Assembly (NCBI GenBank): GCA_963762565.1
Contig: CAVXLD010000012.1
Coordinates: forward strand, 384,001 to 448,000
Direction of reading: 5' to 3'
DNA length: 64,000 nucleotides
DNA from: an uncultured Verrucomicrobiae bacterium
GTDB lineage: Bacteria > Verrucomicrobiota > Verrucomicrobiia > Chthoniobacterales > JAFAMB01
Below the pieces are notes generated by a model that worked only from the letters and a program-made list of their open reading frames with translations, ran no database searches and was not told the origin of the DNA. Made by a program: the position numbers and the translations under genes. Of this stretch, positions 33,103 through 64,000 are shown one piece after another; position 1 is the first letter of the stretch; each line of letters starts with the position of its first letter.

Positions 33103-33109
33103 AGGAAAG

Positions 33110-33830: not shown

Positions 33831-33836
33831 ACAGCT

Positions 33837-36200: not shown

Positions 36201-36222
36201 TTGAAATTCCTCTGCGTTATTC

Positions 36223-36735: not shown

Positions 36736-36758
36736 AAAAGCTCTTCGATTAGTTTCTG

Positions 36759-37806: not shown

Positions 37807-38031
37807 CCTGGAGGGGAGCCGCTTTGTAGCGTGGTAGTTCTGTAGGTAGGCAGCAAGCGGTTCCCGGGAACGGCCTTGCGATGTGGCTCTCTCCAGGATT
37901 TCAAGGGTGAGCCGCGCGTCCTCCGAACCGAGACGGGAACGTCCAGGAAGTGGCGCATCTTGGGCTCTTCCCGGGAGCCGCTTGCTGCACCTCTGCAGAA
38001 CTGCAACGCTACAAAGCGGCTCCCCTCCAGG
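37807..38031. repeat. Family B element
   Basis: Same four arms; inner arms carry single mismatches. Confidence 0.88.
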
Positions 38032-45958: not shown

Positions 45959-46014
45959 GGATCCTTCATTGATCTCGTGAGATGCCGGCAAGCCGTTGGT
46001 AAAACCGAAGATAT

Positions 46015-46176: not shown

Positions 46177-46354
46177 AATAACAGCGTCATACGCACGTCG
46201 CGTGCCACGCTTTAAGCTGTCGCTTAAGTGACTGAAAATGAGTGCCTTACGGATGTACTTAAATTCGTGATCCTCTAAGAAACCATCTCAAAATAGGATT
46301 CAGGTTCTCAATTTGAGACCAAAAATGAAATAGCCGCAAGCAGGGCCTAAAGCC

Positions 46355-46721
46355 TCGCGCAAAGGACGCAAAGGGCGCAAGGGGGAGAGGGTGATTAGTG
46401 ATTAGTGATTAGTGATTGGTGATTGGTGGAAACCCAAATCACCGCAAGGGGAAGACAGGTGAACCGCAGATGTACGCGGATTTATTCTGATAGAGAAGCG
46501 AAGCCTAGTGGAGGTGCGAAGCGGTGAAAGGACTATCGCCTGACAGCTGCGGGATGAGTCTGCGAGTCCTGCGAAGGTAAAAAATGCAGGCCGCCTGTTC
46601 GCCACCCATTTTTGCGCGTTGTGTGCCTTCCGCCGCTACTAGGGTTTTCCACCAATCACCAATCACCAATCACCAATCACGTTCTTCTAACCTCTGCGCC
46701 CTTTGCGTCCTTTGCGCGAGC
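46355..46721. repeat. Nested family I (GCAAAGGAC) and family F (GTGATTG) inverted repeats
   Basis: Outer arms at 46355-46380 and 46692-46721; inner heptamer arms at 46390-46436 and 46642-46680. Confidence 0.85.
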
Positions 46722-46733: not shown

Positions 46734-47567
46734 TCACTCCGCCGCGGTCGTTGGCGCCGAGACCTGTTTCAGACCTTCCGGTGTGAATTCGCTATCGCTA
46801 AACGTGACGTTATGCTTAATCCGGGAGCCATCCAGTTCTGTGACTGAACCTTTCTTGGGATTCTGAACCGTCAGATTGGCCGGTATGGGCCGGCCTTTGT
46901 CATCGTTCGAGACACGAGTGGTGTCGATCCGCACTCTGAGCTCACCCGAAGGCAAATATTTCTCGATGCGCATCAGGACCAGGCGATTCGGATCGATCCA
47001 GGAACGCACTTTGGCGTATTCGGATTCTCCCTTGCTTGGTTTGGATTCGAGAACCGTGCAGTTGACGCCATTAACCAGGTCGGTGCCGGTTATAGTCTGG
47101 TTATCCCAAGATAATGGGTCTTCAATGACATCCAGGTAGGAGAGATCACTGCCGAAAAAAGGTTCGCGCAATTCAGAGGCGGTCAACTTCTGAGATTTAT
47201 CCGGAGGGGTGAAAAGTGTTCCACTTGCCGGGCCGCCTGCCTCTTGATGCAGAAGCACAGATTCGCCCTTTTGCGTCTGCGGCCAGAGCACTTGATAAAC
47301 CAAGTCGGTTGCCGACTTAGTTCGTCTCTCTTTGATTTGAATCTGTAACGTCTCCTCGCTCGCGTTTCCGGACGGTTTCACTTGCAACCGGAGACGCACA
47401 TAAGCATCCCCTTGCTGTTTAGCTGACACAGCCGAAGCCAAATCCTTTGGCGACAATTCAGCGGCCGATGCATCCACAAACGCCGTCAACGCCGTGAGCG
47501 CCGTCATCGCCGTGAGCTGAGTTAGCCAAGACGTCCTCCGACGCTTACAGGCATTGCAATAATTCAT
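46734..47567 (-). CDS. Outer-membrane lipoprotein-sorting (LolA-like) protein
   Basis: Signal peptide, PFFGSDLSYLD, CTVLESKP and YAKVRSWID; follows the ABC permease. Confidence 0.75.
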   Translation of the reverse strand: MNYCNACKRRRTSWLTQLTAMTALTALTAFVDASAAELSPKDLASAVSAKQQGDAYVRLRLQVKPSGNASEETLQIQIKERRTKSATDLVYQVLWPQTQKGESVLLHQEAGGPASGTLFTPPDKSQKLTASELREPFFGSDLSYLDVIEDPLSWDNQTITGTDLVNGVNCTVLESKPSKGESEYAKVRSWIDPNRLVLMRIEKYLPSGELRVRIDTTRVSNDDKGRPIPANLTVQNPKKGSVTELDGSRIKHNVTFSDSEFTPEGLKQVSAPTTAAE

Positions 47568-47647
47568 GTCAAACCTCCTGGATTGATTTTCTCAGTTGGC
47601 GCGACCTCGTCGTCGGCTCTCCTGAACTCCTGAACTCCTCGAACTCC

Positions 47648-48766
47648 TTAAGACCCGTGCAAGGTCTGCCCCGGCGTCACTCTTGAGCTGCGCCAGGCCG
47701 GGTACAGCCCGCTAAGCACACCGACCACGATGGCAATCGCAACGGATACCCCGAGCAGGCGAATCCCGATATCCGGCTCTAGAAGCCCGCGGACACTCGG
47801 TGCGGCTCCTATCATCCGAACGCCTACGACCCCGATCAGGACACCGACTATACCCCCAAGCAGACCCAAAATAGCTGATTCCCACAGGATCAGCTCAACG
47901 ATGCGGCTTCGTTTCCAGCCTAATGCGAGCAACACACAGATCTCCGTTGTCCGTTCGAAGACGTTCATCAACATGGTGTTCATCACGCCCAGAACGCCCA
48001 CGAGTACCGCGAGTAGAGAGGTACTCCAGCTCATCGCTCCTACAATACGAGAGACCTCGCTCTGGCTCAGATTCTCGCTGGCTACGATCGCGCGAGCTTC
48101 CGGTGTCAATTTGTCAATTTGTTCGCAAAGCTGTTGCACGTCCGCCCGGCTGGTGCCGGGAGTGAGCCGGATATCAATCACGTTGATTTTGTCTTGATCA
48201 CCGGTGATCTGCTGGAGCAATGGCAATGAAAGAATCACCGAGCCATTCTCGACCCAAGCGTTACCATCGACGATCCCAACGACTTTCAGTTCCGCGGTCT
48301 CGATTTGGATCGGATCGCCGACCTTCTTTTTAAGCACTTCGGCCGCCGTACGCCCAAGCACGACTGCCTTCTCTTGAGCATCGTCCGGCATTCTGCCAGA
48401 GATGATCTTCAGGTTCTTCCAGGTGAACCCACCCCATTCCCGAGCCGAGACCATTATCATCTCGGTATTTTCAACGCTCATGAGGTCTACCAAGATCGCA
48501 CAAGTGGCATCGACATGGGGGAGATGAGCAATCCGGTCCTGGGCCGCAGCACTGAATTCTTTCGGGACTAGCGAGCTGGTCATATTGCTGACCACGACAT
48601 CCGTCCCCCGCGCTTTCATCCCTGCCGCCCAACTTTTGTTGAGTCCGCGCGAAAGGCCCACTAGCGCGACGACTGCGGCAATTCCGATGGAAATACCTAA
48701 CAAGGTGAGAAGGGTGCGGGTTCGGCGACGGGTCAAACCCCGTATCACCACAGTCATAAAACTCAT
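47648..48766 (-). CDS. ABC transporter permease, FtsX/MacB/LolE type
   Basis: RTLLTLLGISIG, NTMLMNVFERTTEI..LGW and GLYPAWR. Confidence 0.93.
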   Translation of the reverse strand: MSFMTVVIRGLTRRRTRTLLTLLGISIGIAAVVALVGLSRGLNKSWAAGMKARGTDVVVSNMTSSLVPKEFSAAAQDRIAHLPHVDATCAILVDLMSVENTEMIMVSAREWGGFTWKNLKIISGRMPDDAQEKAVVLGRTAAEVLKKKVGDPIQIETAELKVVGIVDGNAWVENGSVILSLPLLQQITGDQDKINVIDIRLTPGTSRADVQQLCEQIDKLTPEARAIVASENLSQSEVSRIVGAMSWSTSLLAVLVGVLGVMNTMLMNVFERTTEICVLLALGWKRSRIVELILWESAILGLLGGIVGVLIGVVGVRMIGAAPSVRGLLEPDIGIRLLGVSVAIAIVVGVLSGLYPAWRSSRVTPGQTLHGS

Positions 48767-49515
48767 TAGTACGCTCCGTTACCTGTTTGCCGGTCCGACA
48801 CGGTCTGTCCGTCAATCATATGAATGATTCGCGACGCTCGATGGGCAATCCGGTCGTCGTGAGTGACGAGCACGAGCGTCATGTGTCGTTCCTGCTGGAT
48901 CTGGTTGAGCAAGTCGAGGATCATGGCCGTGTTGTCACTGTCCAAGTTGCCCGTCGGTTCGTCGGCGAGCAGCACAGAAGGGCTGTTGGCCAGGCTGCGG
49001 GCAATGGCTACTCGTTGTCTTTCTCCTCCCGACAATTTGTTCGGGAAGTGGTTCAGCCGGCCTTCCAGCCCAACCGCCTTCAAAAGCTCACGTGCTCGAT
49101 CCTTGCGTTTCGAGCTCGGCATCCGAGTCTCGAGCATCGGAATTTGCACGTTCTCTAATGCGGTGAAGGTCGGCAGAAGATGGAACGACTGGAAAATAAA
49201 CCCGATTTCCCGAGATCGGTAATCTGACGGATCGGATAAATCGGGGATTGATATTCCCCGGAACAATAAAGTCCCGGCGGTAGGCCGATCTAGTGCACCA
49301 AGCAGTTGAAGCAGAGTGGTTTTACCACAGCCGCTTGGACCCATGATGGCGATAAATTCTCTCTCTGGGATCTCTAGATCCAAACTTCGGAGAGCTTGAA
49401 CCGCGCCGTCATCAAAATCCTTCTTGAGCCCTGCCGCCTCAAATACGTTTGGAATTGGAGCGTCTGACATAGTGTCGACGGCCGCGGTTTCATTAGACCG
49501 AAGCGATGGCTGCAT
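48766..49515 (-). CDS. ABC transporter ATP-binding protein (LolD/MacB type)
   Basis: GPSGCGKT, LSGGERQRVAIAR, ADEPTGNLD and VTHD. TAATG overlap with the permease; start uncertain. Confidence 0.95.
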   Translation of the reverse strand: MQPSLRSNETAAVDTMSDAPIPNVFEAAGLKKDFDDGAVQALRSLDLEIPEREFIAIMGPSGCGKTTLLQLLGALDRPTAGTLLFRGISIPDLSDPSDYRSREIGFIFQSFHLLPTFTALENVQIPMLETRMPSSKRKDRARELLKAVGLEGRLNHFPNKLSGGERQRVAIARSLANSPSVLLADEPTGNLDSDNTAMILDLLNQIQQERHMTLVLVTHDDRIAHRASRIIHMIDGQTVSDRQTGNGAY

Positions 49516-49929
49516 AAATAATTCCTGGCATCGGTGTTTTGGCCGACTTATTTCTTCCGTTATCTCAATTCGACGATCCGCTGACCTGATATTCTTCAAT
49601 CAAAAACGTAACCCCCATTGAGAGTTCGTTTTGCAGGCTTGGGCAGGTTGTAGCCTCTTGCCCCAGCCGTTGGAATCGGGCGACGAGAATAGCACGGGAT
49701 GCGTCAAGCGCGAAAAGAATTTCTTAAGCGGTCATTTGTGTCGGCCGATTGGTTGCTTTGCCCCTGATGGGGGAGGGCGTGCGTCCCCGCGCGCCGCGAA
49801 CGGTCTGCATTGTGGACTTGGCCCAAGACAATTCATCGGGTCTACGCGGCCTTCGGTAACAATCCGGCGACTGCCGGACGACGACGCGATCTCTCCCCGG
49901 CGATGGGCGGGTTGTTCGTCCCAGCGCTC

Positions 49930-50190
49930 GGAGGGGAGCCGCTTTGGCGCGCATTGGGTGACCTCGCGATATTTGGTTCAGCGCTCCCTTTGCCAAAGAA
50001 TATCGCAACAGGCGGCTCCGCGAATAGCCCAGCTGCTCGCAGCTCGAGGGGCCGCGCTTAAACGAATCGAAAGTCACAGGTAAATGCATCACACTGGATT
50101 ATTTCCGGGAGCCGCTTGTTTTCACACGTTTTGCCCGGATTGGCTTTGCGGCGAAATGTGCTGGGCGGCTAGATGTGCGCCAAAGCGGCC
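49930..50190. repeat. Family B element, right end decayed
   Basis: Arms 1-3 recognisable; arm 4 reads CCAAAGCGGCC. Confidence 0.8.
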
Positions 50191-50338
50191 TGCCCGACGT
50201 AGCCTCCCGAGTCTAGACGAAGGGGCGAAGTCCGCCTCTCCGCCGGGCGCTGGGTGATTACACGTCGCATCACCCGCCACGCTTTTCGAGGACGAGGACG
50301 AGGACGCGAACGCGGGCGATTGCCGGCGGCGAATCCCC

Positions 50339-51292
50339 TCACCGGGTCGGGGTAAGCCACTGAGAACCGACCCGGGGATCCGCTAGATTACGGAAAAGAT
50401 GCTTAAACGCGTGCCAATAGCTGGGAAACGGGGCCATCTCATCCGGATTCTTCGGTTCAAGTGCCGAAGCGAATAACGGGAGCTCGGCATGCGGAATGCC
50501 CGAGCGCCAATGATGGACGCCATGAAACGGTTCGTGTAGCAGAGTTAAAGCAACAAATTTTCCGAGTGGCCCTTTTGCGATGATACTTCGGGTTGAGCCA
50601 TTCACTGTCGACCCAGTCAGGCCGACATGTTCGATGTATTTACGCCAGCTCTGCATGTTCCCGGCCAAGACTGCCGGCGCCAGATACAACCACAAAAAAT
50701 AAACCCAAGTTTTCGTGATCGCGACAACTCCGAGAATGCAAACCCAGGCGACCCCCATCAAAAGGAATTCCTCCCAAATTTTCCGCCGAACCTTCGTGTT
50801 GCGGATAGGGGAGCCCTTTCGAAAAAAGGTGCGGACGAACAAAAATGGGGTGTAAAAGGTGCCGATGGTGAGCTCGAGAAACGCGCAGAGAATTCGGAGC
50901 CATCGGGGCGTGCCAGGGATATCGAACGGCCAGAGTTCTTCGTCTTTTTGAGTCGCCAGGTGGGCGTGATGCAGTTGGTGCGCGGCCCGGTAAAGGTTGA
51001 AGCTGGTGAAGCTCATCACGCCGATGATGACGCCGTCGATTTCGTTCAAGCGCCGGTTTTTGCGGAGCAACCCATGAGTTGCTTCGTGAAAACCGATCAA
51101 CATCCCGTGCATGAGATGGCTCACAATCAGCATCAACAGTACGCTCACCCAAATCCATCCCAGATACACCGAGAGGGTCAGCGCTGCTTCGGTCACAAAA
51201 TAAATCGCCGCTAGCAGTGGGAAAGCAGCCCGGCTTACCCAGGTTGGCTGCTCCTGTGGGGTCACGGCTTCGGTCGAAGGGGTCGTGCTCAT
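50339..51292 (-). CDS. Membrane fatty acid desaturase family protein
   Basis: Three His boxes HEATH, HQLHH and HGVHH. ATGA overlap with the C-domain gene. Confidence 0.9.
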   Translation of the reverse strand: MSTTPSTEAVTPQEQPTWVSRAAFPLLAAIYFVTEAALTLSVYLGWIWVSVLLMLIVSHLMHGMLIGFHEATHGLLRKNRRLNEIDGVIIGVMSFTSFNLYRAAHQLHHAHLATQKDEELWPFDIPGTPRWLRILCAFLELTIGTFYTPFLFVRTFFRKGSPIRNTKVRRKIWEEFLLMGVAWVCILGVVAITKTWVYFLWLYLAPAVLAGNMQSWRKYIEHVGLTGSTVNGSTRSIIAKGPLGKFVALTLLHEPFHGVHHWRSGIPHAELPLFASALEPKNPDEMAPFPSYWHAFKHLFRNLADPRVGSQWLTPTR

Positions 51293-52653
51293 GAATCTTT
51301 GCCCGGAAAAGTGTTAATCCGACTCTCAGGGGAACGACAAGCGGCTGCCAGTATCGCCTGAAAGAGGTTAACTAGGTTTTCAATTTCTGCCAGTGGGAAC
51401 AGGTCGGGCCGGAAGAGCCACACTACCTCGAGTCCTTCATCTATCACGGTGATTTCGCAGCCGAGGTGGAATCTGGCGGTACCGGTGGACCGCATGCTAA
51501 GGGACGCAGATAATCCGTGGAGTGCCACGTCCGGCATCGGATGGTTCTGCAATGCGAAACGCACTTCGAAGATCGGGTTATGTCCCGCCCTTGGAGTTTC
51601 CCCCATAGCCGTCACCAGCTCGACAAAAGGCATGGCTTTGGCGAAACATTCCACAGTTCCTTCATGCACTTTTTTGAGATGATCCGAAAAGACCCGGTCA
51701 GGCTCTACCTGCCCGCGAATAGGAACAATACCTGCGCAGTATCCCATCGTTTCCCGGACCGCCTGGGTGCTTCGGTTAGCGACGGGCGTACCCACGAGTA
51801 CATCAGCCTCGCCTGTCCATTTAGAAAGCGCGATCTGGAACGCGGATAGCAGAGTGCTAAAAAGCGTTGCGCCGGTTATGCGAGCAAGTTCCCGCACCGC
51901 ATTGGCGAGATCGATCGGAAAATAAAAGACGCGCCGCTCCGCAGGTCCCGAGGCGGTCATTGATCCTTCAAAGGAACTCCAAAGTCTCCGGGTTCCAGCC
52001 AGATAAGATCTCCAGAACGGCGCGCGGCGTTCTATTTCAGCCGGCTGCCAATAAGAGCGTTCGGCTGTGCCCCAAGCGCTGTACGTTAACGCTACTTCCG
52101 GGAGTCGCTCCCGCGGAGAGAGGATGCCGGTTAAGTAGGCGGCGCACAAATCCTCAACGAATACCCCCAAACTCCAGCCGTCCGCGACAGCATGATGAAT
52201 AGCCAGAACCAAGACATGAGTATCCTGGCTTAGCCGCAGAACTTCCACTCGATAGAGCGGCCCTCGCACGAGCTCGAACGGCGTACGGAAAACTTCCATG
52301 GCTGCCTCTTCGACCACTTCGTCGCGGACTAGCCCGTCGGAAAGGCTCCGGTACCGGAGATTAACATCCGCGCTCGACCGGATCATCTGGAGCGGGCGCT
52401 CTTTGCCGGGCAGGATCGAAAGCCGCAGGACTTCCTGGCGTTCCATTACCCGGCGGACAGCTGACTCGCAGGTTTCCTGAGTCACCAGGCCTCGCACCCG
52501 GATCAGGCAACAGATATGATTGGCAACGTCCGCAACCGGGACCGGCGATGCTTCCCAGAGCTCTCGTTGCGGAAAGGTCAGAGGCTGCAGTTTCGCTTTT
52601 CCACTGGCCAACCAGTCCTTGAGCGCGGCGCGTTTATCTACAGACACATCCAT
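51289..52653 (-). CDS. Stand-alone NRPS-type condensation domain protein
   Basis: PLTFPQ, RQEVLR, PFELVRGPL, HHAVADGWS (HHxxxDG), GTPVANR and PFVELV. Confidence 0.93.
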   Translation of the reverse strand: MDVSVDKRAALKDWLASGKAKLQPLTFPQRELWEASPVPVADVANHICCLIRVRGLVTQETCESAVRRVMERQEVLRLSILPGKERPLQMIRSSADVNLRYRSLSDGLVRDEVVEEAAMEVFRTPFELVRGPLYRVEVLRLSQDTHVLVLAIHHAVADGWSLGVFVEDLCAAYLTGILSPRERLPEVALTYSAWGTAERSYWQPAEIERRAPFWRSYLAGTRRLWSSFEGSMTASGPAERRVFYFPIDLANAVRELARITGATLFSTLLSAFQIALSKWTGEADVLVGTPVANRSTQAVRETMGYCAGIVPIRGQVEPDRVFSDHLKKVHEGTVECFAKAMPFVELVTAMGETPRAGHNPIFEVRFALQNHPMPDVALHGLSASLSMRSTGTARFHLGCEITVIDEGLEVVWLFRPDLFPLAEIENLVNLFQAILAAACRSPESRINTFPGKDS

Positions 52654-52655
52654 TG

Positions 52656-55600: not shown

Positions 55601-58600
55601 CAGGTTTCTGCCAGGCCTTCCGCGCGAGCAGACCGATCTGGCCTTCGCCTTCCGGGCCAACCAGACCAGGAAGGGTTATTGTCTCGGCGAATCCGGTTTC
55701 CCGGAGGACACTCTCCCATTGAGAACGGCCCAGCAACGGGTGCTCCTGACGCAAATCGCTATCCGTAAAGCGCCACCATCCTGATGTCAGACCGAAGACG
55801 ACCTCTGTCCATAGTTGCGGGTTGGCGAGGTCCATGAAAGCCAAGCTGCCTCCCGGAGCCAGTAGGCTGTGTAGTTCCCTTAGCTCTGCCCGCAAGTCGC
55901 GGACGGCATGCAACACGTTCGTTCCAATGATGAAGTCGAATGTGCCGGCTTCAAATCCTTGCTCGGCAGCGGGTTTCTCCAGATCGTAAGTCTTAAATTC
56001 CACGTTGTGGAAATTGGCCAGCTTTTGCTTGGCGCCGCCGAAAAACGCCGGAGATACATCCGTGAAAGTGTAGGAATGCAGTTCATGGTCGATCAACGGC
56101 AACACATGAGCTGTTAATCCTCCGGTGCCGGCTCCCACTTCCAGAATTCTGAGCCCACGACCTTCCGGTAAATGGCGCGCTGTTTCCTGGATTGCGGCGG
56201 CAATCGCGCCGAGCCAATGGCTGGCGTAGAGCCCCTCGCAGTAGAAATGATCCAGCAAGTCCACTGCGCTTCCCGCGAATAGTACCTGTACGGCGTCTTT
56301 TTCTCCCCGTAAGATTGGGCCAAGTTCAGCGCAATTGTCCACGCAAAGCAGGCCCTCTGCGGTGTATCCGGGATGTTTAGTTATAAAGGTCCGGAGAGCG
56401 TCGGCGGCGGAATCTGCGGCCCGGGTGAACGCTGTTGTCGGTCGATAGCTGTCTCCATTCTTTTCGAGCCAACCGCGTCTGGCCAGGTTAGCCAGGAAAC
56501 GTTCAAACACGTGGCGCATCGGTTCCGCGACTTGCAAAGATTGGCTCGAGAAATCGACAGCCCCGGTTACAGATGCCATCTTTCGAATGCCATCAGCAAG
56601 CTGTTCCGCTGCCAGCTGATCTTGGTCGATTATCGCCTGGATCATCTGAGATCGGCCTCGCATGGTGAGCACCTCATCCAATGCTGCCTGCGCGGCTTCC
56701 CGCACCCGGCCAAACGGGATTGGCTCTGGCAGAGGCCCCGTCGATCCAACCGGTGTTCGCTCCCAGGTAAGGTGGTAGAGCACGTTGCGGCTAACAGCTT
56801 GCGCTCCTCCTCGATGGCCTCCGGCGATGGCAATTGCCCGGAAACCGTCTACCAGCACACAAGGCTGTCCTTGCTCGTCAAACAGTTCGATCCGGCCTTC
56901 AACGTATTCGTTGCTGCATTGGTGAACCGTGGCCCGTACCCGGGTGTTATCCCCGGGAGATTGAAGGAATAAAATTTTAGAAAATCGGACCGGCAATTTT
57001 AGCCCGGCTTTGCGGTCTTCCTTGGTGGCGGCCGCCGCCGAAAAGACGTGGAGAGCGCCATCGAAAAGTACGGGGTGAAGCGAGTACTCACTTGCCCGGT
57101 CGATAATTCGTTTTGATAAAGCGACCTGTCCTTCAGACCGCCCGTTGCTGGCCGAAAGGGCGCGGATCGGCCGGAACTCTTCCCCATAAGGGAGTCCCAG
57201 ATCGCTCATGTGCCGGTAGAAGTCTTCAATCCCAACCGGGGTTAGATCGGACACCGGGGAAGAATCCCAGGATGCTGTGCCAAAGCTGGTCTCTGTCCGC
57301 TCGCTGCGCATTGAGCCGACCACATGCAGGGACCACGCCGCCCCGTGATGCATTTGGCTCTGAATCGAGAAGGTTCGCTCGTTTGGGTCGTAGGAGAGCT
57401 CAAGCTGAAGCTCAGAAGGGGTATCGGACAGGATCAGCGGTTTCCGAATCTCGAAGTCTTCGACGATAAAGGGTCGTCCATTGAACAGCTGGGTGCCGGC
57501 CTCCAAGATCATCTCAACAAACGCAGCAGCCGGGAAAACGACTAAATTCTCCACCTTGTGATCCCGGAGGAAAGCCAGGTGCCGGCCGTCCAAGCGACTG
57601 ATCCAGGTGGGCGTAGCCCGCGGTAGTTTGACCTCGAGTAATCCGCGGGAGCCTGAGCTCAAGCGGCTTTCTGCCCAATCATTGGATTCGTTCCACCACC
57701 GGTTCTTGTCCCAAGCATACGCTGGGAGTGAGAGTAACCGGCGAGATGGGGTCATGCTGGTAAAGTCCAATCCGACATTGGCTCGGTGCAGGCTCATCCC
57801 AGTCTCGAGCAGTGATTCGTGTTCGCGCTCTCGCCGGATCGAAGAAAATACCGTGGTCTTGGTTCCGTTGCGTCCAGCCAGACAATCTTGAATTGACCGA
57901 ACGAGGGCGGGTTGCGCGCTAAGTTCGAGCCAAACGTCGATCCCCGTCTCGCTTACGGCGTCGACGGCGGATGCAAATTGAACCGGCTGCCGTACGCCGC
58001 GTCCCCAGTGTTCAGCGACACAATCCGTTCCAGCGCATTTCTGACCGGTGACCGTGCTGAAGAAAGGTACCTTCTCCGGATGCGGAACCAGATCAGCCAA
58101 CGCCGCCTCCAACTCTTCGGATGCAGGCCTCATCAACGGATGATGAAAAGGATGGTCCACCCGGACGAAGCGGGCGAATACCTCATCGGCCTCGAGTTCC
58201 GTCGCGATCGCTTCCAAAGAAAGCTTTGGTCCGGCTAGGGTGAGCGAGTTAGGACCGTTAAAGGCCGCGATAGTGATGGTGCGATCATATTGCGCCAGCC
58301 GAGCCCGAGCGGCCTCTTCATTTAAACCGACGGCCAACATCGTACCCTGTCCGCGGGCGCAGTCATCCATGAAGCGAGCTCGTAACACGATTATCCGAGC
58401 TGCTTCTTCAAAGGTGAGGACGCCGGCCACGAATGCAGCCGCGATTTCACCCACGCTGTGACCCACCACAGCCGCGGGCTCAATTCCCCAGGATTTCCAC
58501 ATTTCTGCCAGAGCCACCTGAATGGCGAAGATGGCCGGTTGAGCCACCTCTGTCCGCGCCATTTGCGTCTCTTCCTCCGAGCGGCTGAGCTCTTCGATCA

Positions 58601-60356
58601 GTGAAAATCGGCTATACGGCCGCATGGCGGCATCGCAACGCTCAATGGTTTGGCGAAATAGGGGCTCATACTGCATGAGCTCGCGGCCCATGCCCCACCA
58701 TTGCGGCCCTTGCCCGCTCATCACGAAAGCCACCCGTGGGCTCTGGGTTGGTCGAGGGGCAAACGTGGTTTGGATCTTTGGCCCCGGCTGTCCGGTTGCG
58801 TAATTCGTCAGTTCCTGAACGACCTCGACTAGTGACCCGGCCACCAAAGTGAGCCGGTAGGGATGATGATTACGCCGAGTGCCTAATGTGTAGGTCAAAT
58901 CGGGCAGAATAGGAGAGCTGCCGTTAGCAGCCGCGTGTTGCTCGACCCAGGTAGCCATGCGCATGGCATAACCTCGCAGCGATTCTTCTGAGCGGGCCGA
59001 CAACATCACCGGCCAAGCTCGTTCAACCTCGATCTTTTCGTGCTCCGTTTGGCATTCTACCGGGGGCTCGACCAAAAGGACGTGTGCATTTGCGCCACCG
59101 AAGCCGAAAGAATTGACGCCGGCCATTCGGGAACCAGACGTCTCCGGGAACGGCTCCAAGGTTGTGGGTATCCGCAGCTTCAGCGCTGCGAAATCGATGT
59201 TTGGATTTGGTGTATTGAAATGCAGGCTGGCCGGGATACGACCATGTTTCAGCACTAACATCGCTTTCAACAGACCAGCCAGACCGGCAGCGGTCTCCAG
59301 GTGGCCCAGATTCGTCTTTACCGATCCAATCGGTAACGGTTTATCCGCAGGGCGATCCTGGCAAAGGGCCTTCGAAAGGGCATACGCTTCAATCGGGTCA
59401 CCGACCGCCGTGCCGGTTCCATGAGCTTCAACGAACCCGATCTCAGAAGGAGAAATCCCAGCGTTTACACACGCCTCTGAGACGAGTCGGGCCTGCGCTT
59501 CAGCACTGGGAAGCGAGATCCCATTCGTATGACCATCCTGGTTGAGTGCGGTGCCGATAATGATCCCTTGGATGGGGTCGCCATCCTCGATCGCTCGAGA
59601 GAGCCTTTTGAGCAGTACCATGCCGGCTCCTTCGCCACGGACGAAGCCATTGGCCGCAGCGTCGAACGCTTTGCATTTCCCTTCCGGCGAGAGCATTGAA
59701 GCTTGCGAAAATCCGATGAACCCGCCGGGAGTAATGATCACCGTGACCCCCCCGGCCAGCGCTGTATCGCCGCGGCCCGCGCGAATGTGTTCGCACGCCA
59801 TATGAACAGCCGTTAATGCGGACGAACAGGCCGTATCCATCGCCACGCTCGGCCCTTGCAAATTTAGGCAATAGGAAATTCGGTTAGCGGCGATGCTGTG
59901 GGCGGTGCCCGTCGGCGAATGGGGTCCGATCCCAGAATGGTCGAAAGCGGTACTCTGAATTCCCTGATATTCGTTGTGCGAAATACCGACGAAAACGCCG
60001 ATGTCGGTTCCGCGCTCAAAATCGAGCACCACGCCTGCGTCTTCGATTGCTTCCCAAGCCGTCTCCAGGAGTAACCGATGTTGCGGGTCGACATAGGGAG
60101 CTTCCCGTGGCGAGATGCCAAAAAACTGTGGATCGAATTGGTCGATGTTCTCCAGAAACCCGGCCCGCTTGGCTATCGATTTTCCAGGGAGTCCAGGTTC
60201 CGCGTCGAAAAAGCGTTCTATGTTCCAACGGTCCGGCGGGACGTCAGTTACGGCTTCGCGTGCCTCGACCAGCAGTTTCCAAAATGACTGAACGTCATTT
60301 ACTCCGCCGGGGAATCGGCATCCGATGCCAATAATTGCGATAGGATCTTTCGACAT
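52656..60356 (-). CDS. Single-module highly reducing type I PKS: KS-AT-DH-cMT-ER-KR-ACP
   Basis: KS DTACSS/HGTGT/NLGH; AT GHSVG and HPFH; DH HKVENLVVFP and DGALH; cMT ILEVGAGTG and NVLH; ER HAGAGGVG; KR TGAFGGFG, IDD and NYAAAN; ACP LGLDSL. No TE domain. Confidence 0.96.
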   Translation of the reverse strand: MSKDPIAIIGIGCRFPGGVNDVQSFWKLLVEAREAVTDVPPDRWNIERFFDAEPGLPGKSIAKRAGFLENIDQFDPQFFGISPREAPYVDPQHRLLLETAWEAIEDAGVVLDFERGTDIGVFVGISHNEYQGIQSTAFDHSGIGPHSPTGTAHSIAANRISYCLNLQGPSVAMDTACSSALTAVHMACEHIRAGRGDTALAGGVTVIITPGGFIGFSQASMLSPEGKCKAFDAAANGFVRGEGAGMVLLKRLSRAIEDGDPIQGIIIGTALNQDGHTNGISLPSAEAQARLVSEACVNAGISPSEIGFVEAHGTGTAVGDPIEAYALSKALCQDRPADKPLPIGSVKTNLGHLETAAGLAGLLKAMLVLKHGRIPASLHFNTPNPNIDFAALKLRIPTTLEPFPETSGSRMAGVNSFGFGGANAHVLLVEPPVECQTEHEKIEVERAWPVMLSARSEESLRGYAMRMATWVEQHAAANGSSPILPDLTYTLGTRRNHHPYRLTLVAGSLVEVVQELTNYATGQPGPKIQTTFAPRPTQSPRVAFVMSGQGPQWWGMGRELMQYEPLFRQTIERCDAAMRPYSRFSLIEELSRSEEETQMARTEVAQPAIFAIQVALAEMWKSWGIEPAAVVGHSVGEIAAAFVAGVLTFEEAARIIVLRARFMDDCARGQGTMLAVGLNEEAARARLAQYDRTITIAAFNGPNSLTLAGPKLSLEAIATELEADEVFARFVRVDHPFHHPLMRPASEELEAALADLVPHPEKVPFFSTVTGQKCAGTDCVAEHWGRGVRQPVQFASAVDAVSETGIDVWLELSAQPALVRSIQDCLAGRNGTKTTVFSSIRREREHESLLETGMSLHRANVGLDFTSMTPSRRLLSLPAYAWDKNRWWNESNDWAESRLSSGSRGLLEVKLPRATPTWISRLDGRHLAFLRDHKVENLVVFPAAAFVEMILEAGTQLFNGRPFIVEDFEIRKPLILSDTPSELQLELSYDPNERTFSIQSQMHHGAAWSLHVVGSMRSERTETSFGTASWDSSPVSDLTPVGIEDFYRHMSDLGLPYGEEFRPIRALSASNGRSEGQVALSKRIIDRASEYSLHPVLFDGALHVFSAAAATKEDRKAGLKLPVRFSKILFLQSPGDNTRVRATVHQCSNEYVEGRIELFDEQGQPCVLVDGFRAIAIAGGHRGGAQAVSRNVLYHLTWERTPVGSTGPLPEPIPFGRVREAAQAALDEVLTMRGRSQMIQAIIDQDQLAAEQLADGIRKMASVTGAVDFSSQSLQVAEPMRHVFERFLANLARRGWLEKNGDSYRPTTAFTRAADSAADALRTFITKHPGYTAEGLLCVDNCAELGPILRGEKDAVQVLFAGSAVDLLDHFYCEGLYASHWLGAIAAAIQETARHLPEGRGLRILEVGAGTGGLTAHVLPLIDHELHSYTFTDVSPAFFGGAKQKLANFHNVEFKTYDLEKPAAEQGFEAGTFDFIIGTNVLHAVRDLRAELRELHSLLAPGGSLAFMDLANPQLWTEVVFGLTSGWWRFTDSDLRQEHPLLGRSQWESVLRETGFAETITLPGLVGPEGEGQIGLLARKAWQKPAETPVAWPNGSIEAPSEKSWLIVDDASDLGDLLATQLRQLDTTCRVVRPGNHFPGNGTGVFTVAPESVEDWKSVLQECFQDAPLERIVYLWTEPANRDSKQDPALMGTDALLHLVQALDSVVGPTGKLRIDLVTRGAQPAGWAEIPPNVAQAPLLGLFRVVLNEYSNFSGRGIDLGFEPSPSDFSFLWQELMRTDGEREVAFRGQARYVQRIVRGRSSVDERLDPAVPLRLESRERGHLDTLGFKPFVAPDCGPGQVLIEVKAAGLNFRDVLKALALYPMEAPDARLFGDEVAGIVKAVGSGVDHVAPGDRVFGLSVFGLSTHTLARGGDVRRIPGELSFEEAATLPVVFMTAWHALQNVARMRPGESILVHAGAGGVGMAAIQIAHYLGAKVIATAGSQTKRNLLERLGVKHVIDSRRGDFADAVMQITGRRGVDVVLNALASEAIPMGLSCLTEFGRFIEIGKRDIYQNARIPLWPLRRNASFHVVAMDAVFSGDESLTRQMLEEISDLIERGSLRPLPYRSYPAARVDAGFRLMAQGKHIGKVLVTFPEAFLPRRGEPLTAGFHVDTQGSYLITGAFGGFGKVVAQWLVEAGAGDLVLVSRSGAETPEAKGFVDRLRERGVSVTAIRADAGSEEDVTRLMATVRTANRPLKGVFHLAMVIDDAPLAALTSDRMRSVLAPKARGAWLLHQATRDLELDCFVMFSSVSSIFGNPAQGNYAAANAFLDSLAHHRRALGLPALVINWGALGGEGYVARNERVAEFLARQGTGELSPHEVVDLMESSLMANADQVMAIRIDWVKWRQVFRSMQERPLLERIFSAIEGNDSPGKVSDYRQRIESAAPDEVEGIVGQAVRDAVASVLRVKPETLRDDQPLTDLGLDSLMGVEIENTLDASLGVSLPPASLTRARTIGQIVTLIAEYMGAKRSGGTPAKKAAARGEAGQTLSEEVDLTALSDEEIAGLLGEDTTEEKLSDSRDVVH

Positions 60357-60589
60357 AATTAAGTGGGTCGCGGGCCGACTGTGCGCAGAGAGCTCCAGCG
60401 TACAGATTTCGTTTCAGCGAAGTCAATGGTGTGGTGGATTGGGTTCACTTTGCCAAACAAGAGCAAAAAGAGAACACCACATTTCGATTTCGCGAACGAA
60501 ATCGAGTTCGGATTGATTAACTATTTGTTTTTTTGACGTTTCCATTGCAGCCTGCATTCAAATTCGCCACGTAAACCTGGCTGAAGGCC

Positions 60590-60786
60590 GTGGCGCTGCC
60601 TCGCTTGCGTGGCCGTGGTAAGCAAGGAAAATTGTTTAGTCAATCCTTATCGCTGCAGCGCTCTATCTCGCGACCTCGTCCATCTTTATAAACAAAAGCG
60701 ACGGCCTGACCAAGCGACTTCCACACCGATATCCTTGCGAACCACGGCCTCGCAAGCGAGGCAGCGCTCCACGGGTGGCGACCCCC
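60590..60786. repeat. Family A element in the PKS/asnB divergent region
   Basis: GCCTCGCTTGCG..GCCGTGGTAAGCAAGG ... ACCACGGCCTCGCAAGCGAGGC..CCACGGGTGGCGACCCC. Confidence 0.85.
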
Positions 60787-60880
60787 TTAGGCCCTCCGCG
60801 GACAAATCAGCTAATAGCACGAGATGCGAATTGGAAACAAATGTTTGACCGGTCCCCGATAGGCGCTGAGCCTTAATAAG

Positions 60881-62875
60881 ATGTGTGGAATTGCAGGCTT
60901 TATTGATTTGGCCGGAGGCCGTTCCCTCGGTGACGATGTCATCAAGAGGATGACACGCGCGATCATTCACCGAGGACCAGACGAGGAGGGGTATTTCCAG
61001 CGTCCGGGCCTCGCTCTGGGCTCAAGACGGTTAAGCATCGTCGGTTTGGCGGACGGTCAACAACCGGTGACGAACGAAGACCGGACGGTCCATGTGGTCT
61101 TTAATGGCGAGTTTTTTGACTTCCAGGAGCGGCGTGCTGAGCTGCAAGCCAAAGGGCATCGTTTAGTAACGCATTGCGATACCGAGATCATTCCGCACTT
61201 TTGGGAAGAAGCGCAGGAGAAGATGTTCAAGAGTTTTCAGGGCCAATTCGCCTTCGCGTTGTGGGACGATCGGCGGCGTTGTCTAGTGCTTGGTCGGGAC
61301 CGGTTTGGGATTAGCCCGCTTTATTGGACCAGACAAGGCGATTGGTTGTTCTTTGCTTCTGAAATTAAGGCCTTGCTGGCCTCCGGGATGGTTCCGGCCG
61401 AGCCTGATCTCCGAGGCATCGATCATGTTTTCACTTTCGCTGCTTTGCCCGGCCCAATTACCTGTTTCAAAGGGGTTAAATTATTACCGCCCGGTCATTA
61501 TTTAGTGATTCGGCCGGGAAACCGATCTGGAACGACTTCATCGATCAAAGAGAGTGCCTATTGGAAAATGGACTTCCCCGATCGCGGGGAAGAAGATCGG
61601 GGAGAAAACGCTAAGGCCTTGGTTGACCGGTTCGAGCAGCTCCTGCTGAACGCAGTTGAGGAACGCCTCAGAGCAGACGTACCGGTTGGTTCTTATTTGT
61701 CCGGCGGTGTCGATTCAAGTGTTATCGCGGCTCTCGCTTGTCACGTTAAAGGTCCTGCCATCAACACCTATACAGTCCGGGTCGATGCGCCCCATTTGGA
61801 TGAGCTGGACGCTGCTAACCTTGTAGCCCGCCATATCGGTACCAAACCTCCGATTGTTCAGCAATTCAGGAGCGAAGACGTGTTAAACACCTATCCGGAG
61901 TTGATCCACGCTGCGGAAGCGCCGGTCATCGACACTTCCTGCGCGGCGCTCTTACAACTGGCAGGGCGGGTTCACCGTAATAATCAAAAAGTCGTTCTTA
62001 CCGGCGAAGGAGCCGACGAATGGTTGATCGGTTATCCCTGGTATAAAGCCGCTAAGATTCTCAGTCTTCTCGATGTTATTCCTGGATTGCCACTTAGCGA
62101 CCTATTCCGTAGCGCGTATCTCGGGCTGCACCACGTACCGCAGTATCCCGCGAGCTTTCGACGCGGAGTAGAGGCTTCACTCGGCGGACCCAATGCCTGG
62201 ATCGATACTTATGGTGTCCTCGGACTGGCGAAACTAAGATTTTATGCGCCGCCGATGCGGGAGGTCCTGGCACAACACAATGCTTGGGCCGATCTGCACA
62301 TCCCCTTGGAACGAGCCAAACGATGGCACCCGTTAAACCGGGGGGTTTGGGTGGCGGCACGAGTTACTCTGGCCGGACACCTTTTGCAGGCCAAAGGAGA
62401 TCGGGTGGCGATGAATTCCTCGGTTGAAGTGCGCTACCCGTTTCTTGACGAAGACGTTTTCAACTTTTTGGCTTCGCTGGATCCGCGCTGGAAGCTTCGA
62501 GGTTTTCGCGACAAGCATCTGCTGCGCCTTTTGGCGGAACGTTGGGTGCCGCCTTCCGTGTATCGGCGCCGCAAGGTGATTTTCCGAGCTCCTTTGGACA
62601 GTTTTCAGTTGGAACCTGAACCGCCTTTTGTCAGCCAGTTAGTGAGCGAAGAATCGCTACGACGGACCGGATATTTCGACGTCGAGCAAGTCCATCATTG
62701 GCGACGAGCTTATCGTCAACTGCGCGCCGGGTCTCTAGGACGACTTTCGGTCGAATTGGGCCTGGTGGCAGTAGTCGCGACTCAGCTCTGGCATCATTTG
62801 TTTATTCGGCCTGAGCTCGCCGAGCTGCCCGTTGGAACTGCCAACGGAGTCTCTCTGGAGAAGGCGGCCCTCTAA
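60881..62875 (+). CDS. asnB: Asparagine synthase (glutamine-hydrolysing)-like amidotransferase
   Basis: N-terminal MCGIAG, HRGPD, FNGE, LSGGVDSS, LTGEGADE and VEVRYPFLD. Confidence 0.92.
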   Translation: MCGIAGFIDLAGGRSLGDDVIKRMTRAIIHRGPDEEGYFQRPGLALGSRRLSIVGLADGQQPVTNEDRTVHVVFNGEFFDFQERRAELQAKGHRLVTHCDTEIIPHFWEEAQEKMFKSFQGQFAFALWDDRRRCLVLGRDRFGISPLYWTRQGDWLFFASEIKALLASGMVPAEPDLRGIDHVFTFAALPGPITCFKGVKLLPPGHYLVIRPGNRSGTTSSIKESAYWKMDFPDRGEEDRGENAKALVDRFEQLLLNAVEERLRADVPVGSYLSGGVDSSVIAALACHVKGPAINTYTVRVDAPHLDELDAANLVARHIGTKPPIVQQFRSEDVLNTYPELIHAAEAPVIDTSCAALLQLAGRVHRNNQKVVLTGEGADEWLIGYPWYKAAKILSLLDVIPGLPLSDLFRSAYLGLHHVPQYPASFRRGVEASLGGPNAWIDTYGVLGLAKLRFYAPPMREVLAQHNAWADLHIPLERAKRWHPLNRGVWVAARVTLAGHLLQAKGDRVAMNSSVEVRYPFLDEDVFNFLASLDPRWKLRGFRDKHLLRLLAERWVPPSVYRRRKVIFRAPLDSFQLEPEPPFVSQLVSEESLRRTGYFDVEQVHHWRRAYRQLRAGSLGRLSVELGLVAVVATQLWHHLFIRPELAELPVGTANGVSLEKAAL

Positions 62876-62919
62876 TGTGGCTAATCGCCTGACCTGGGCG
62901 GTTAGCAGGATTTTTTTGA

Positions 62920-64000
62920 ATGGATACAAAAAACCGATGTGCCTCCGCGGCTCAACTCTTCAAAGTCGCCCTCGCGCTTGTTGCCCTTCTCAGCGGGTGC
63001 GCGACCCCATTTAACCATGATGCCAGCGTTACGCGGAATAACGCCTTTATCGATTACTGGCCGGGGCCGAAAGACTCGGAAAATGTCCGTCTAGCGGTTA
63101 AGGACGTTATCGATCTCAAGGGCGTTGTTACTACGGCAGGTTCTGATTATTTCGAAAAGCACGGCCAGCCCGCCTCCCGCGACGCGGCCTGTATGGCGAT
63201 CGCCCGGCAACGAGGCATCAGGATCGTCGGCAAAACCAACCTCGACGAATTTGCCGTCGGGGTGACCGGGATGAATGAATATTTCGGAATCCCGAGAAAC
63301 CGGATCAGCCGATGGCGGGATCTTATTCCGGGTGGCTCATCCTCCGGGTGCGCGGTGGCAGTTCAAAGCGGTATGGCGGATGTTGGCTTTGGCACCGACA
63401 CCGCTGGATCCGTCCGAGTCCCGGCGGCTTGTTGCGGCATTGTGGGTTTAAAAACCACGTTCGGTCTGATCTCGCTACATGGCGTATTTCCCCTTGAACC
63501 TAAGCATATGGACACGGTTGGCCCGATGGGCAAAGACATCGACCACGTGGTCGAGGGCATGGATCTGCTGGAGAACGGCTTCCGTGAACGCTACGAATCT
63601 GCCATCGCAAACATGCCGGCGAGAAGAATTCGGATCGGCCGCTTATACGTGGATGGCACCGATAAAAAAATCGATCAAGCGATCGATTCCGCTCTTAGCC
63701 AGGCAGGATTTGAAGTTATTCCGTTAAGCAAAGCTTTTAAAGACAGATGGGACCAGGCCGAGAAGGACGCGACTACCGTCGCGGAGTCAGGCGCCTGGAT
63801 CAGCGATGGCCCCTATTTTTCGAAACCGGAAGTTGGCGGCAAAGTCAAAGCGGCAATCGCTTTGGGACAGATTGAATTCACGACGAACTATAAAAACGCG
63901 CTTAGCCGAGAAGCGGCTTGGCGGCGCACCCTGGGCCAGCTGTTCACGCGCGTCGATTTCATTGCTTTGCCGACCCTGAAAAAATTGCCCCCCAGGATTC
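62920..64000 (+). CDS. Amidase-signature family lipoprotein (3' end outside window)
   Basis: Manual translation: MDTKNR..LALVALLSGC (lipobox), AVKD, GKTN, GGSSSG and GTDTAGSVRVPA. The frame is open to the edge. Confidence 0.9.
   Translation, partial: MDTKNRCASAAQLFKVALALVALLSGCATPFNHDASVTRNNAFIDYWPGPKDSENVRLAVKDVIDLKGVVTTAGSDYFEKHGQPASRDAACMAIARQRGIRIVGKTNLDEFAVGVTGMNEYFGIPRNRISRWRDLIPGGSSSGCAVAVQSGMADVGFGTDTAGSVRVPAACCGIVGLKTTFGLISLHGVFPLEPKHMDTVGPMGKDIDHVVEGMDLLENGFRERYESAIANMPARRIRIGRLYVDGTDKKIDQAIDSALSQAGFEVIPLSKAFKDRWDQAEKDATTVAESGAWISDGPYFSKPEVGGKVKAAIALGQIEFTTNYKNALSREAAWRRTLGQLFTRVDFIALPTLKKLPPRI

Follow-up and report, generated by a model that had tools for sequence, protein, structure and literature searches.

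Members of the Chthoniobacterales, such as Candidatus Udaeobacter, rank with the most abundant bacteria of soils, and their envelope chemistry is almost unknown. A locus from an uncultured member of this order raises the question of whether a polyketide synthase (PKS) contributes a lipid to that envelope. The locus lies in a 64,000-nt stretch of contig CAVXLD010000012.1 (hereafter the window), one end of which carries genes for a fully reducing PKS, a free-standing condensation (C) domain, a fatty-acid-desaturase-family enzyme, an ATP-binding cassette (ABC) transporter of the MacB type, a LolA-like protein, an AsnB-type amidotransferase and a lipoprotein of the amidase-signature family. What could such a combination make, and where would the product go? 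The answer proposed here starts from what is observed: the genes present and their intact motifs, the way in which neighbouring genes stay coupled, a natural PKS-C fusion and the phyletic pattern. The cluster is real, and its product is probably a methyl-branched fatty chain linked to a partner and carried towards the outer membrane. More specifically, we give a probability of roughly 55% to a vertically inherited verrucomicrobial pathway for an exported, most likely envelope, lipid, operating by the steps detailed below.

Organization of the cluster

The genes were mapped from the open reading frame (ORF) list and a Pfam scan of the window. On the reverse strand, in the order of transcription, come the genes of the PKS (52656..60356, 2566 aa), the free C domain (51289..52653, 454 aa; PF00668, E 1.6e-62), the desaturase-family enzyme (50339..51292, 317 aa; PF00487, E 1.5e-29), a LolD/MacB/DevA-like ABC ATPase (48766..49599; PF00005), a MacB/FtsX permease (47648..48766, 372 aa; PF12704 and PF02687) and the LolA-like protein (46734..47567, 277 aa; PF17131, E 2.1e-26). 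The forward strand carries, divergently from the PKS gene and across an intergenic region (60357..60880) that contains a 175-nt palindromic element, the AsnB-type gene (60881..62875, 664 aa; PF00733 and PF13537). A 44-nt gap harbouring a terminator-like hairpin (62880..62906, forward strand) separates it from the amidase gene (62920..63999, forward strand; PF01425, E 4.1e-54), which exceeds the window and of which the first 360 aa are visible. In the ORF map, the ATG of the C gene lies 2 nt after the PKS stop codon, and the C and desaturase genes overlap by 4 nt (ATGA).

The coordinates, domains and couplings that the first-pass annotation had given for all nine of its genes agree with the ORF list and with Pfam; the start of the ATPase gene, set at 49599, is most likely to be moved to the in-frame ATG at 49515, which yields a protein of 249 aa (orthologue median, 250). 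With this start, a spacer of 823 nt (49516..50338) lies behind the desaturase gene, unlike most loci, in which the ATPase gene follows closely. The 122-aa ORF held by this spacer (49724..50092) was discarded as a gene candidate: it matches no Pfam or NCBIfam family, and tblastn does not find it in any of the 80 loci described below. The Pfam scan of the window found no phosphopantetheinyl transferase, acyl-AMP ligase, adenylation domain or separate carrier protein. The GC content displays neither a break nor an anomaly at the cluster, whose gene order is far beyond chance and is found again in relatives belonging to at least two orders.

Distribution and inheritance

A genome scan including one genome per species (185,579 species genomes) returned 221 stretches with a relative of the C domain. 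The locus analyses cover the best 80 of these 221 stretches, each with 10-kb flanks; synteny was established by tblastn of the window proteins against the 80 loci (E <= 1e-10), only the loci long enough being counted for a given gene. The best 80 loci are all titled Verrucomicrobiota, the carriers being Chthoniobacterales, Ca. Udaeobacter, Terrimicrobiaceae, Prosthecobacter, Luteolibacter, Akkermansiaceae and others. The cluster is shared by many soil and water Verrucomicrobia, including at least one cultured carrier of all seven genes counted here (AsnB, PKS, C, desaturase, ATPase, permease and LolA-like), Brevifollis gellanilyticus NBRC 108608 (locus L033). Among the protein relatives of the same size as the C domain, the best 120 listed are 66-83% identical to it, and the few named ones are from Verrucomicrobia or Chthoniobacterales.

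The PKS gene directly precedes the C gene in 74 of the 77 judgeable loci and the desaturase gene is found in 73 of 78, while the exporter genes occur in 49-58 of 65-71 loci (ATPase 58/71, permease 55/70, LolA-like 49/65). The homologous PKSs do therefore co-occur with the C domain, the desaturase and the exporter, an association on which the first-pass annotation had made its proposal depend. AsnB is present in 40 of 51 judgeable loci, and all seven genes are found together in 32 of the 47 full-span loci. Spacings extrapolated from the tblastn alignments indicate that the PKS-C gap does not exceed 35 nt in 65 of 73 loci and that the C-desaturase gap is equally short in 63 of 67, a 4-nt overlap being the commonest arrangement (25/67).

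Five variant loci (L045, L054, L057, L060 and L078) carry the PKS and C genes without the desaturase or the exporter. AsnB is also absent from L045, L057, L060 and L078, L054 being too short for an AsnB call. These same four loci display an upstream gene for a tetratricopeptide repeat (TPR) protein, to which L060 and L078 add a glycosyltransferase gene and L057 a patatin-like gene; in L057, a resistance-nodulation-division (RND) pump gene pair (HlyD and AcrB) lies directly downstream of the C gene and replaces the ABC/LolA set. Eight loci carry the PKS, C and desaturase genes without an adjacent exporter.

The C domains are 48-74% identical across two orders. In a quick maximum-likelihood tree of 77 C proteins, the sequences are grouped by order, and none of 500 label shuffles was as clustered (32 rows without an order label were left out of this test). 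Both this clustering and the absence of a GC anomaly fit a cluster that would be mainly vertically inherited. The loci nearest to the window are L001, L002, L003 and L022, and two of them, L001 and L022, share its flanking beta-lactamase, AraC and carboxylesterase genes; the window therefore represents chromosomal DNA from an uncultured lineage of the Chthoniobacterales.

The polyketide synthase

Pfam delimits a ketosynthase (KS, 4-380), an acyltransferase (AT, 544-846), a dehydratase (DH, 909-1180), a methyltransferase (cMT, 1388-1557), an enoylreductase (ER, 1838-2133), a ketoreductase (KR, 2157-2334) and an acyl carrier protein (ACP, 2438-2504), every one of them above its cut-off. The enzyme is thus one fully reducing type I module, KS-AT-DH-cMT-ER-KR-ACP, followed by an acidic tail of ~60 aa. 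Pfam detects no thioesterase and no loading domain in it, in agreement with the initial description of a single fully reducing module with a methyltransferase and without a thioesterase. Catalytic motifs are found in all domains (DTACSS, HGTGT, GHSVGE, HPFH, HKVENLVVFP, DGALH, LEVGAGTGG, HAGAGGVG and LGLDSL; the KR tyrosine). The KS begins at residue 4 and possesses its active-site Cys, the DH carries H933...P942 with an Asn replacing the Gly of HxxxGxxxxP, and the ER carries an NADPH motif.

The first-pass annotation had called this enzyme a fungal-style highly reducing PKS. The domain order justifies the name, but the sequence does not: among solved structures, the best match is mycocerosic acid synthase (9d2z, 1029 bits, spanning residues 4-1200), ahead of DEBS (up to 831 bits) and of the fungal LovB (716 bits). 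In NCBIfam, the PKS reaches 1232 bits with the Pks2 model NF041183 (cut-off 2400) and 1338 bits with NF045894 (cut-off 1740), and it is below the cut-off of all the Pks2, Pks13 and PKS-plus-SDR equivalog models.

The 46 full-length orthologues are 63-81% identical to the PKS of the window. The mean fraction of residues identical to the latter, measured over 47 rows (one being an antisense ORF that adds noise only), is 0.70 for the methyltransferase, 0.69 for the AT, 0.72 for the KR, 0.64 for the DH and 0.51-0.63 for the linkers, and motif I of the methyltransferase, which binds S-adenosylmethionine (SAM), is ~98% conserved. According to the HAFH/YASH rule, AT motifs resembling HPFH and GHSVGE indicate malonyl specificity. 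The AT of the window carries precisely GHSVGE and HPFH, where the methylmalonyl-specific AT3 of DEBS carries GHSQGE and YASH. This malonyl-like AT and the conserved methyltransferase together fit methyl branches that would be derived from SAM.

The prospect of further modules, which would have pointed to a modular assembly line, was considered. Apart from split PKS ORFs, the cluster PKS has no further PKS gene as a neighbour in the loci whose gene lists were examined. Most PKS ORFs shorter than 2400 aa end at a contig edge; those of L047 and L067 start in the middle of the AT because of frame breaks, and domain loss was rejected for them. L047 also displays, in DNA of 67% GC, a 2743-aa open frame (3998-12229, reverse strand) that is antisense to the PKS, C and desaturase genes and has no similarity to the PKS; it illustrates the length that spurious ORFs may reach in such DNA.

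The free C domain

The C protein matches PF00668 with 212 bits (cut-off 30.6). Its active site, HHAVADG, fits the HHxxxDG consensus, and H153, H154, D158 and G159 are invariant in 21 sequences. Its 57 matches in the PDB (E <= 1e-3) are led by the C domains of the teixobactin (Txo2) and tyrocidine (TycC) synthetases and include the free-standing SgcC5, while neither PapA5 nor VibH is found among these 57; the C domains of LovB and MokA are weak matches (2.1e-9 and 9e-10, respectively). Outside its own family, the nearest relatives are ordinary nonribosomal peptide synthetases (NRPSs), 25-34% identical, this search for longer proteins having covered lengths of 796-2270 aa. Globally, these comparisons identify the C domain as a member of the NRPS-type group rather than as a PapA-like protein.

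Does this C domain work with the PKS? In L029, from Ca. Udaeobacter, both form a single ORF of 2994 aa (2360-11344), beyond the length range of the above search, i.e. a natural KS-AT-DH-MT-ER-KR-ACP-C fusion. Taken together, the adjacency of the genes in 74 of 77 loci, their tight spacing and this fusion suggest that the PKS and the C domain act in concert. L029 is the sole true fusion. A PKS-C fusion in L024 and a C-desaturase fusion in L033 were rejected, the ORF lists showing separate genes, as was a PKS-C fusion in L065, where only a remnant ORF is found. This remnant (3843-4868), which lies beside an amidase orthologue, consists of the first 56 residues of the KS and the first half of the C domain. 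L065 shares its genome bin with the intact cluster of L006, and either a decayed second copy or an assembly chimera is possible.

The desaturase-family enzyme and AsnB

The desaturase-family protein matches PF00487 with 104 bits (cut-off 29.7) and carries the His boxes HEATH, HQLHH and HGVHH. No named NCBIfam subfamily exceeds 37 bits, no relative was found in the PDB at E <= 1, and an Atlas search returned generic desaturase clusters only. These features correspond to a putative membrane di-iron enzyme, either a desaturase or a hydroxylase.

AsnB begins with MCGIAG, which provides the Cys nucleophile, and passes the general asparagine synthase model TIGR01536 (407 bits, cut-off 267), whereas it remains below the cut-off of the XrtA/PEP-CTERM amidotransferase TIGR03108 (400.6 bits versus 816.9). 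Its assignment to the glutamine-hydrolysing amidotransferase family is thus clear from the motifs and profiles. The best PDB match is the hydroxyamidotransferase 7ylz, which we take to be TsnB9, an enzyme whose substrate is a polyketide acid and not aspartate. The AsnB gene is divergent and upstream in 39 loci and downstream only in L072, where it is relocated into the exporter operon, 2 nt behind the LolA-like gene. Its presence in 40 of 51 loci, this relocation and its joint absence with the desaturase and the exporter from the judgeable loci that carry only the PKS and C genes suggest that AsnB belongs to the cluster.

The exporter and its carrier

The ATPase reaches 238.8 bits with the LolD model TIGR02211 (cut-off 307.75) and 181-195 bits with the models of MacB, DevA (190.5 bits) and bacteriocin/darobactin exporter ATPases. 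The permease, which is of the MacB type and whose periplasmic core domain spans about residues 42-244, reaches 52.2 bits with the LolC/E equivalog (cut-off 362.45). The LolA-like protein possesses a signal peptide and, in an alignment of 34 orthologues, no conserved lipobox; it matches PF17131 (LolA_like) only, and its PDB relatives are 4z48, 9tp6 and 3bk5, the last two being named outer membrane lipoprotein-sorting proteins.

A complex was predicted between the permease domain (42-244) and the mature LolA-like protein (37-277), using a 34-row alignment for each. It obtained a score of 0.69, compared with 0.01 for the best of three controls; the runs agree in at least 95% of the contacts, and the partner pLDDT (predicted local distance difference test) is at least 89. 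Among solved complexes, 116 of 157 attain this mark, as do 2 of 215 mismatched pairs. The predicted contacts include the invariant E99 of the permease and Q75, L94, P96, G247 and S248 of the LolA-like protein. The model supports binding of the carrier by the periplasmic domain of the permease; since the structure of the LolC-LolA complex is solved, the score may reflect likeness to that complex. The export system had initially been described as Lol-like. This holds for its parts, which belong to the MacB/Lol superfamily, but not at the level of the Lol equivalogs, whose cut-offs are all missed.

The amidase, the TPR protein and other accessory genes

The amidase carries the lipobox LLSGC. Its tblastn matches are found in 3 of the 80 loci, and its conservation is uncountable in most of the others, their 10-kb flank ending inside or just past AsnB. 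Its status as a bystander was rejected on this ground and because the three matches adjoin the cluster. Next to the cluster, L072 and L065 possess orthologues with lipoboxes (55-59% identity) and L045 a partial copy (46%). The order in L072 is LolA-like, AsnB, then a convergent pair formed by the TPR and amidase genes; in L045 it is amidase, TPR, a small ORF, then PKS; in L065 the amidase gene is divergent from the remnant KS-C ORF. These are three gene orders and orientations, each unlike that of the window.

The TPR protein matches PF21033 and displays a signal peptide or a lipobox-like N-terminus. Its gene, or a C-terminal end of it, is found in 12 loci: it is complete in L045, L057, L060, L072 and L078, its C-terminal 184 aa are present at the edge of L053, and C-terminal ends convergent on AsnB reach the edge of six main-type loci (L018, L041, L059, L073, L074 and L076). 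A comparable locus, L079, has no TPR match within its 133 nt of room. There is none in the window either; a TPR gene, if present, would lie beyond base 64000. As the amidase and TPR genes recur beside the clusters of relatives, the cluster probably extends past this base, and the advice of the first-pass annotation to read further is well founded, given that the gene accompanying the amidase elsewhere is missing here.

The hairpin between AsnB and the amidase gene, with a 12-pair stem followed by a T run, has the longest stem of the 24 terminator-like sites scanned, a number that is not above chance (20.8 expected from shuffles). A promoter scan found 3 sites, fewer than in shuffled sequence (7.7).

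Some relatives carry additional genes. Patatin-like genes occur in three loci and not in the window: a 1285-aa protein is encoded inside the cluster of L073 (14321-18178), a gene lies beside the cluster of L057 (1-1141), and an ORF of equal length is found at the corresponding place in L075 (10773-14630), where it is assigned by its length of 1285 aa only. A 370-aa gene is located within or just behind the exporter genes in eight loci (L072, at 13072-14184, L034, L036, L053, L064, L067, L073 and L075). It has no Pfam match at 1e-5 and a weak likeness to class I SAM methyltransferases (Atlas look-alikes), and the possibility that it encodes a second permease was rejected on these grounds.

Proposed pathway and alternatives

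In the pathway that we favour, the PKS would draw on malonyl units and SAM and, most likely in an iterative manner, assemble on its own ACP a saturated acyl chain with methyl branches. The translationally coupled C domain would then release this chain from the ACP onto a nucleophile not bound to a carrier, leading to an amide or an ester, and the membrane di-iron enzyme would desaturate or hydroxylate the lipid. At the expense of ATP and glutamine, AsnB may amidate a carboxylate group carried by the product or by its head group. The MacB-type ABC transporter would extract the lipid from the inner membrane and deliver it to the soluble LolA-like carrier, as LolCDE does with LolA, the binding step being the one modelled in silico. 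Finally, the lipoprotein amidase and, in relatives, the TPR protein too could receive, trim or transfer the lipid in the periplasm. The uniform architecture and the conservation of the cluster, together with the recurrence of lipid-active accessory genes (patatin-like, amidase, methyltransferase-like and glycosyltransferase), speak for a structural or surface lipid more than for an antibiotic that diffuses.

Several points weigh against this pathway. With 221 relatives among 185,579 species genomes, such a lipid is evidently not universal in the phylum. The exporter is absent beside the cluster in 13-16 of 65-71 loci and AsnB in 11 of 51, functions that are thus either dispensable or encoded at another site. 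The permease and the ATPase fall below every Lol equivalog cut-off, and pumps of the MacB type also export soluble toxins and antibiotics. No adenylation or peptidyl carrier protein domain was found in the window or, across the 80 loci, among the conserved families lying at most 10 kb from the C gene; as there is thus neither an adenylation domain nor a carrier protein to present an amino acid, the acceptor used by the C domain is a guess. The fold provides no clue to this acceptor, the C-domain model being of moderate confidence (pLDDT 69.8) and its top Foldseek neighbours being generic C domains. Furthermore, no candidate was identified for a flippase, for the product or for the acceptor molecule, and a single extension of a fatty-acyl primer fits the PKS as well as iteration does.

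A bolder version of the same pathway would give many Verrucomicrobiae a second Lol-like route, dedicated not to lipoproteins but to a PKS-made, SAM-methyl-branched amide lipid. The amide formed by the C domain in the cytoplasm would be a stored acyl donor instead of the final product; once the lipid is exported, the lipoprotein amidase and a TPR protein of a lipid-binding type would transfer or release the chain at the outer membrane without ATP. Enzymes of the amidase-signature family work through an acyl-serine intermediate. This version is a speculative one to which we give little credence; if true, its periplasmic acyl-transfer logic would be an undescribed one for Gram-negative envelopes.

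The alternative that survives best is a diffusible product of specialised metabolism (an N-acyl amide signal, a surfactant or an antibiotic, for instance) expelled by MacB-type efflux, with an amidase that would activate a pro-form or ensure self-protection. The core enzymes are indeed of the PKS/NRPS type, the ATPase also resembles those of MacB, DevA and bacteriocin/darobactin exporters, the RND pump replaces the ABC/LolA set in L057, glycosyltransferase genes lie upstream in L060 and L078, and a periplasmic hydrolase beside biosynthetic genes recalls pro-drug activation. However, the architecture is uniform and the conservation high across two orders for both the C domain and the PKS, and the C tree is grouped by order, unlike the usual patchy and diversifying antibiotic clusters. 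In addition, instead of a membrane-fusion protein and an outer-membrane channel, the pump has as its partner a LolA-like carrier, with predicted binding between the two, and no conserved resistance or regulator gene is found in the cluster among the gene families of the loci. A diffusible product is thus unlikely, while deserving to be kept in mind.

It is rather improbable that the PKS is non-iterative, taking a fatty acyl primer from primary metabolism and extending it by a single methyl-branched C2 unit before the C domain passes on the resulting 2-methyl acyl chain. Sequence cannot tell iteration from single use, and the single module without a loading domain, whose KS starts at residue 4 with its active-site Cys, would suit this scheme, as would the nearest solved relative, mycocerosic acid synthase, which extends long fatty-acyl primers. 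The latter is nevertheless iterative although it is primed by fatty acids, and no fatty-acyl-AMP or acyl-CoA ligase is found in the window or among the families conserved beside the cluster.

Finally, a functional unit limited to the PKS, the C domain and the desaturase, in which AsnB would be the housekeeping asparagine synthetase and the amidase and ABC/LolA genes mere neighbours by shared ancestry, would accommodate the match of AsnB to the general asparagine synthase model, the hairpin that parts it from the amidase gene, the loci without AsnB or the exporter and the uncountable conservation of the amidase, the 10-kb flank of most loci not reaching the far side of AsnB, but it is very unlikely given the AsnB gene within the exporter operon of L072, the joint absence of AsnB, desaturase and exporter from the judgeable loci with only the PKS and C genes, the amidase orthologues beside the PKS or cluster in three different orders and orientations, the predicted binding of permease and carrier, and the polyketide acid that is presumably the substrate of the best solved relative of AsnB.

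Other features of the window

The palindrome located between the PKS and AsnB genes (60593-60767) is 175 nt long, with 36-nt arms that are 92% complementary and a predicted fold of -98.9 kcal/mol (z -7.7). It was rejected as a regulatory site, being a dispersed repeat with a sister element at 25226-25397. In total, 18 pairs of long inverted repeats (arms of 28-98 nt) are found in the window, most of them intergenic, at 8872-9154, 10908-11047, 11865-12063, 18032-18210, 22073-22533, 23785-24082, 25226-25397, 26039-26205, 27756-27973, 31742-32156, 33110-33243, 37807-38031, 46354-46720 and 60593-60767. Several share arm sequences, e.g. the elements at 60593 and 25226, at 10908, 18032 and 23785, at 8948 and 26039, and at 22073 and 27756, and these repeats look like families of dispersed palindromic elements. 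The one at 46354-46720, between the LolA-like and beta-lactamase genes, is a composite palindrome with outer arms of ~35 nt and inner arms made of tandem GTGATTA/GTGATTG heptamers. Rfam, at its gathering thresholds, has no match in the whole window.

Beyond the cluster, the reverse strand encodes a class A beta-lactamase (44948-45991; NF033103, 332.8 bits versus a cut-off of 200) and a BlaR1-type M56 peptidase with HEAT repeats (6448-8376), which fit the report, in the available text of PMC7343977, that Verrucomicrobia are rich in beta-lactamases. The same strand carries a cluster for a carbon-monoxide-dehydrogenase-like molybdenum enzyme (28016-37634), including FAD, 2Fe-2S and large molybdenum cofactor subunits, CoxG, an AAA ATPase, a CoxE-like VWA protein, two XdhC and a MobA-like transferase, and a gene for a fused trehalose-6-phosphate synthase/phosphatase of 724 aa (12091-14265; Glyco_transf_20 and Trehalose_PPase).

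Comparison with known systems

No description of this cluster was found in the literature searched in full text, and the impression of the first-pass annotation that no characterised cluster has this combination therefore stands within that literature. In the parts of the sources available, a Luteolibacter genome paper merely lists a type I PKS among its antiSMASH results (PMC11427321), few secondary-metabolite genes are reported for Ca. Udaeobacter (PMC7343977), and a review of the Verrucomicrobiota mentions polyketides among genomically predicted compounds without describing a cluster (PMC12714770).

The closest parallel is the mycobacterial pathway for phthiocerol dimycocerosates (PDIM), which relies on mycocerosic acid synthase (Mas), the best solved match of the PKS, and in which PapA5 is involved in off-loading and MmpL7 and LppX in transport. 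Both systems would combine a reducing PKS that makes a methyl-branched chain, off-loading by a member of the C superfamily, a dedicated transporter and a periplasmic carrier. The available text of PMC11539658 names MmpL7 and LppX in PDIM export. The two systems differ in several respects: the branches would come here from a SAM methyltransferase combined with a malonyl-like AT (HPFH) and not from methylmalonyl-CoA (YASH), the C domain is of the NRPS type and does not have PapA5 among its PDB matches, the transporter is a MacB-type ABC system rather than an RND pump, the Pks2 and Pks13 equivalog models are far below their cut-offs, and the host is a Gram-negative verrucomicrobium.

The fungal highly reducing PKSs of the LovB type display an identical order, KS-AT-DH-cMT-ER-KR-ACP, and the C domain fused at the end of the L029 protein strengthens the likeness, LovB having one there too. 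By sequence, LovB nevertheless ranks under Mas and DEBS; furthermore, the C domain here is canonical (HHxxxDG) and the ER has an NADPH motif, whereas LovB-like enzymes carry HRxxxDG in their C domain according to the accessible part of PMC13492342.

Among bacterial enzymes, Sup, Swf and RkpA/WcbR are monomodular PKSs found in Gram-negative bacteria and sponge microbiomes, and SupA has the order KS-AT-DH-MT-ER-KR-ACP. They are presented, in the portion of PMC4245539 available, as small single-module PKSs resembling fatty acid synthases (FASs) and proposed to make branched fatty acids or lipids of envelope polysaccharides, the sup genes being from sponge microbiomes and their source organism being reported as unresolved. 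Compared by description only, they differ from the present cluster in that the same portion of PMC4245539 describes no C domain, AsnB or Lol-like exporter for them.

The exporter recalls the LolCDE-LolA system by its MacB-superfamily permease, its LolD-like ATPase, its soluble carrier of the LolA fold and the predicted contact between permease and carrier. It differs by having one permease gene instead of two and a carrier that matches PF17131 only, and by missing the Lol cut-offs. Since its genes sit inside a biosynthetic cluster, it presumably transports the PKS lipid rather than lipoproteins.

Aryl-polyene and heterocyst-glycolipid clusters also associate lipid-building PKS or FAS-like genes with dedicated transport, and the ATPase matches the DevA family. 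Their synthases are type II-like or belong to other kinds of PKS, and their transport relies on RND or DevBCA-TolC systems; none of them is known to have the set formed by a free C domain, AsnB and an amidase. The term LolA-like occurs in the available text of an aryl-polyene preprint (10.1101/2020.12.19.423268).

If the envelope-lipid pathway is correct, a conserved single-copy pathway that unites a PKS of fungal-like order, an off-loading C domain, an amidotransferase/amidase pair and a private Lol-like route would point to an undescribed class of surface lipids, which could serve as a biomarker for the Chthoniobacterales group. It would also give a bacterial and genetically simple model for the highly reducing PKSs that use a methyltransferase, and a second natural class of cargo for the MacB/LolA-type machinery. 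The cultured carrier Brevifollis gellanilyticus NBRC 108608 makes the question directly testable. Compared with all these systems, the cluster appears as a variant, with a product not previously described, of the theme of a PKS-made envelope lipid that has its own transport.

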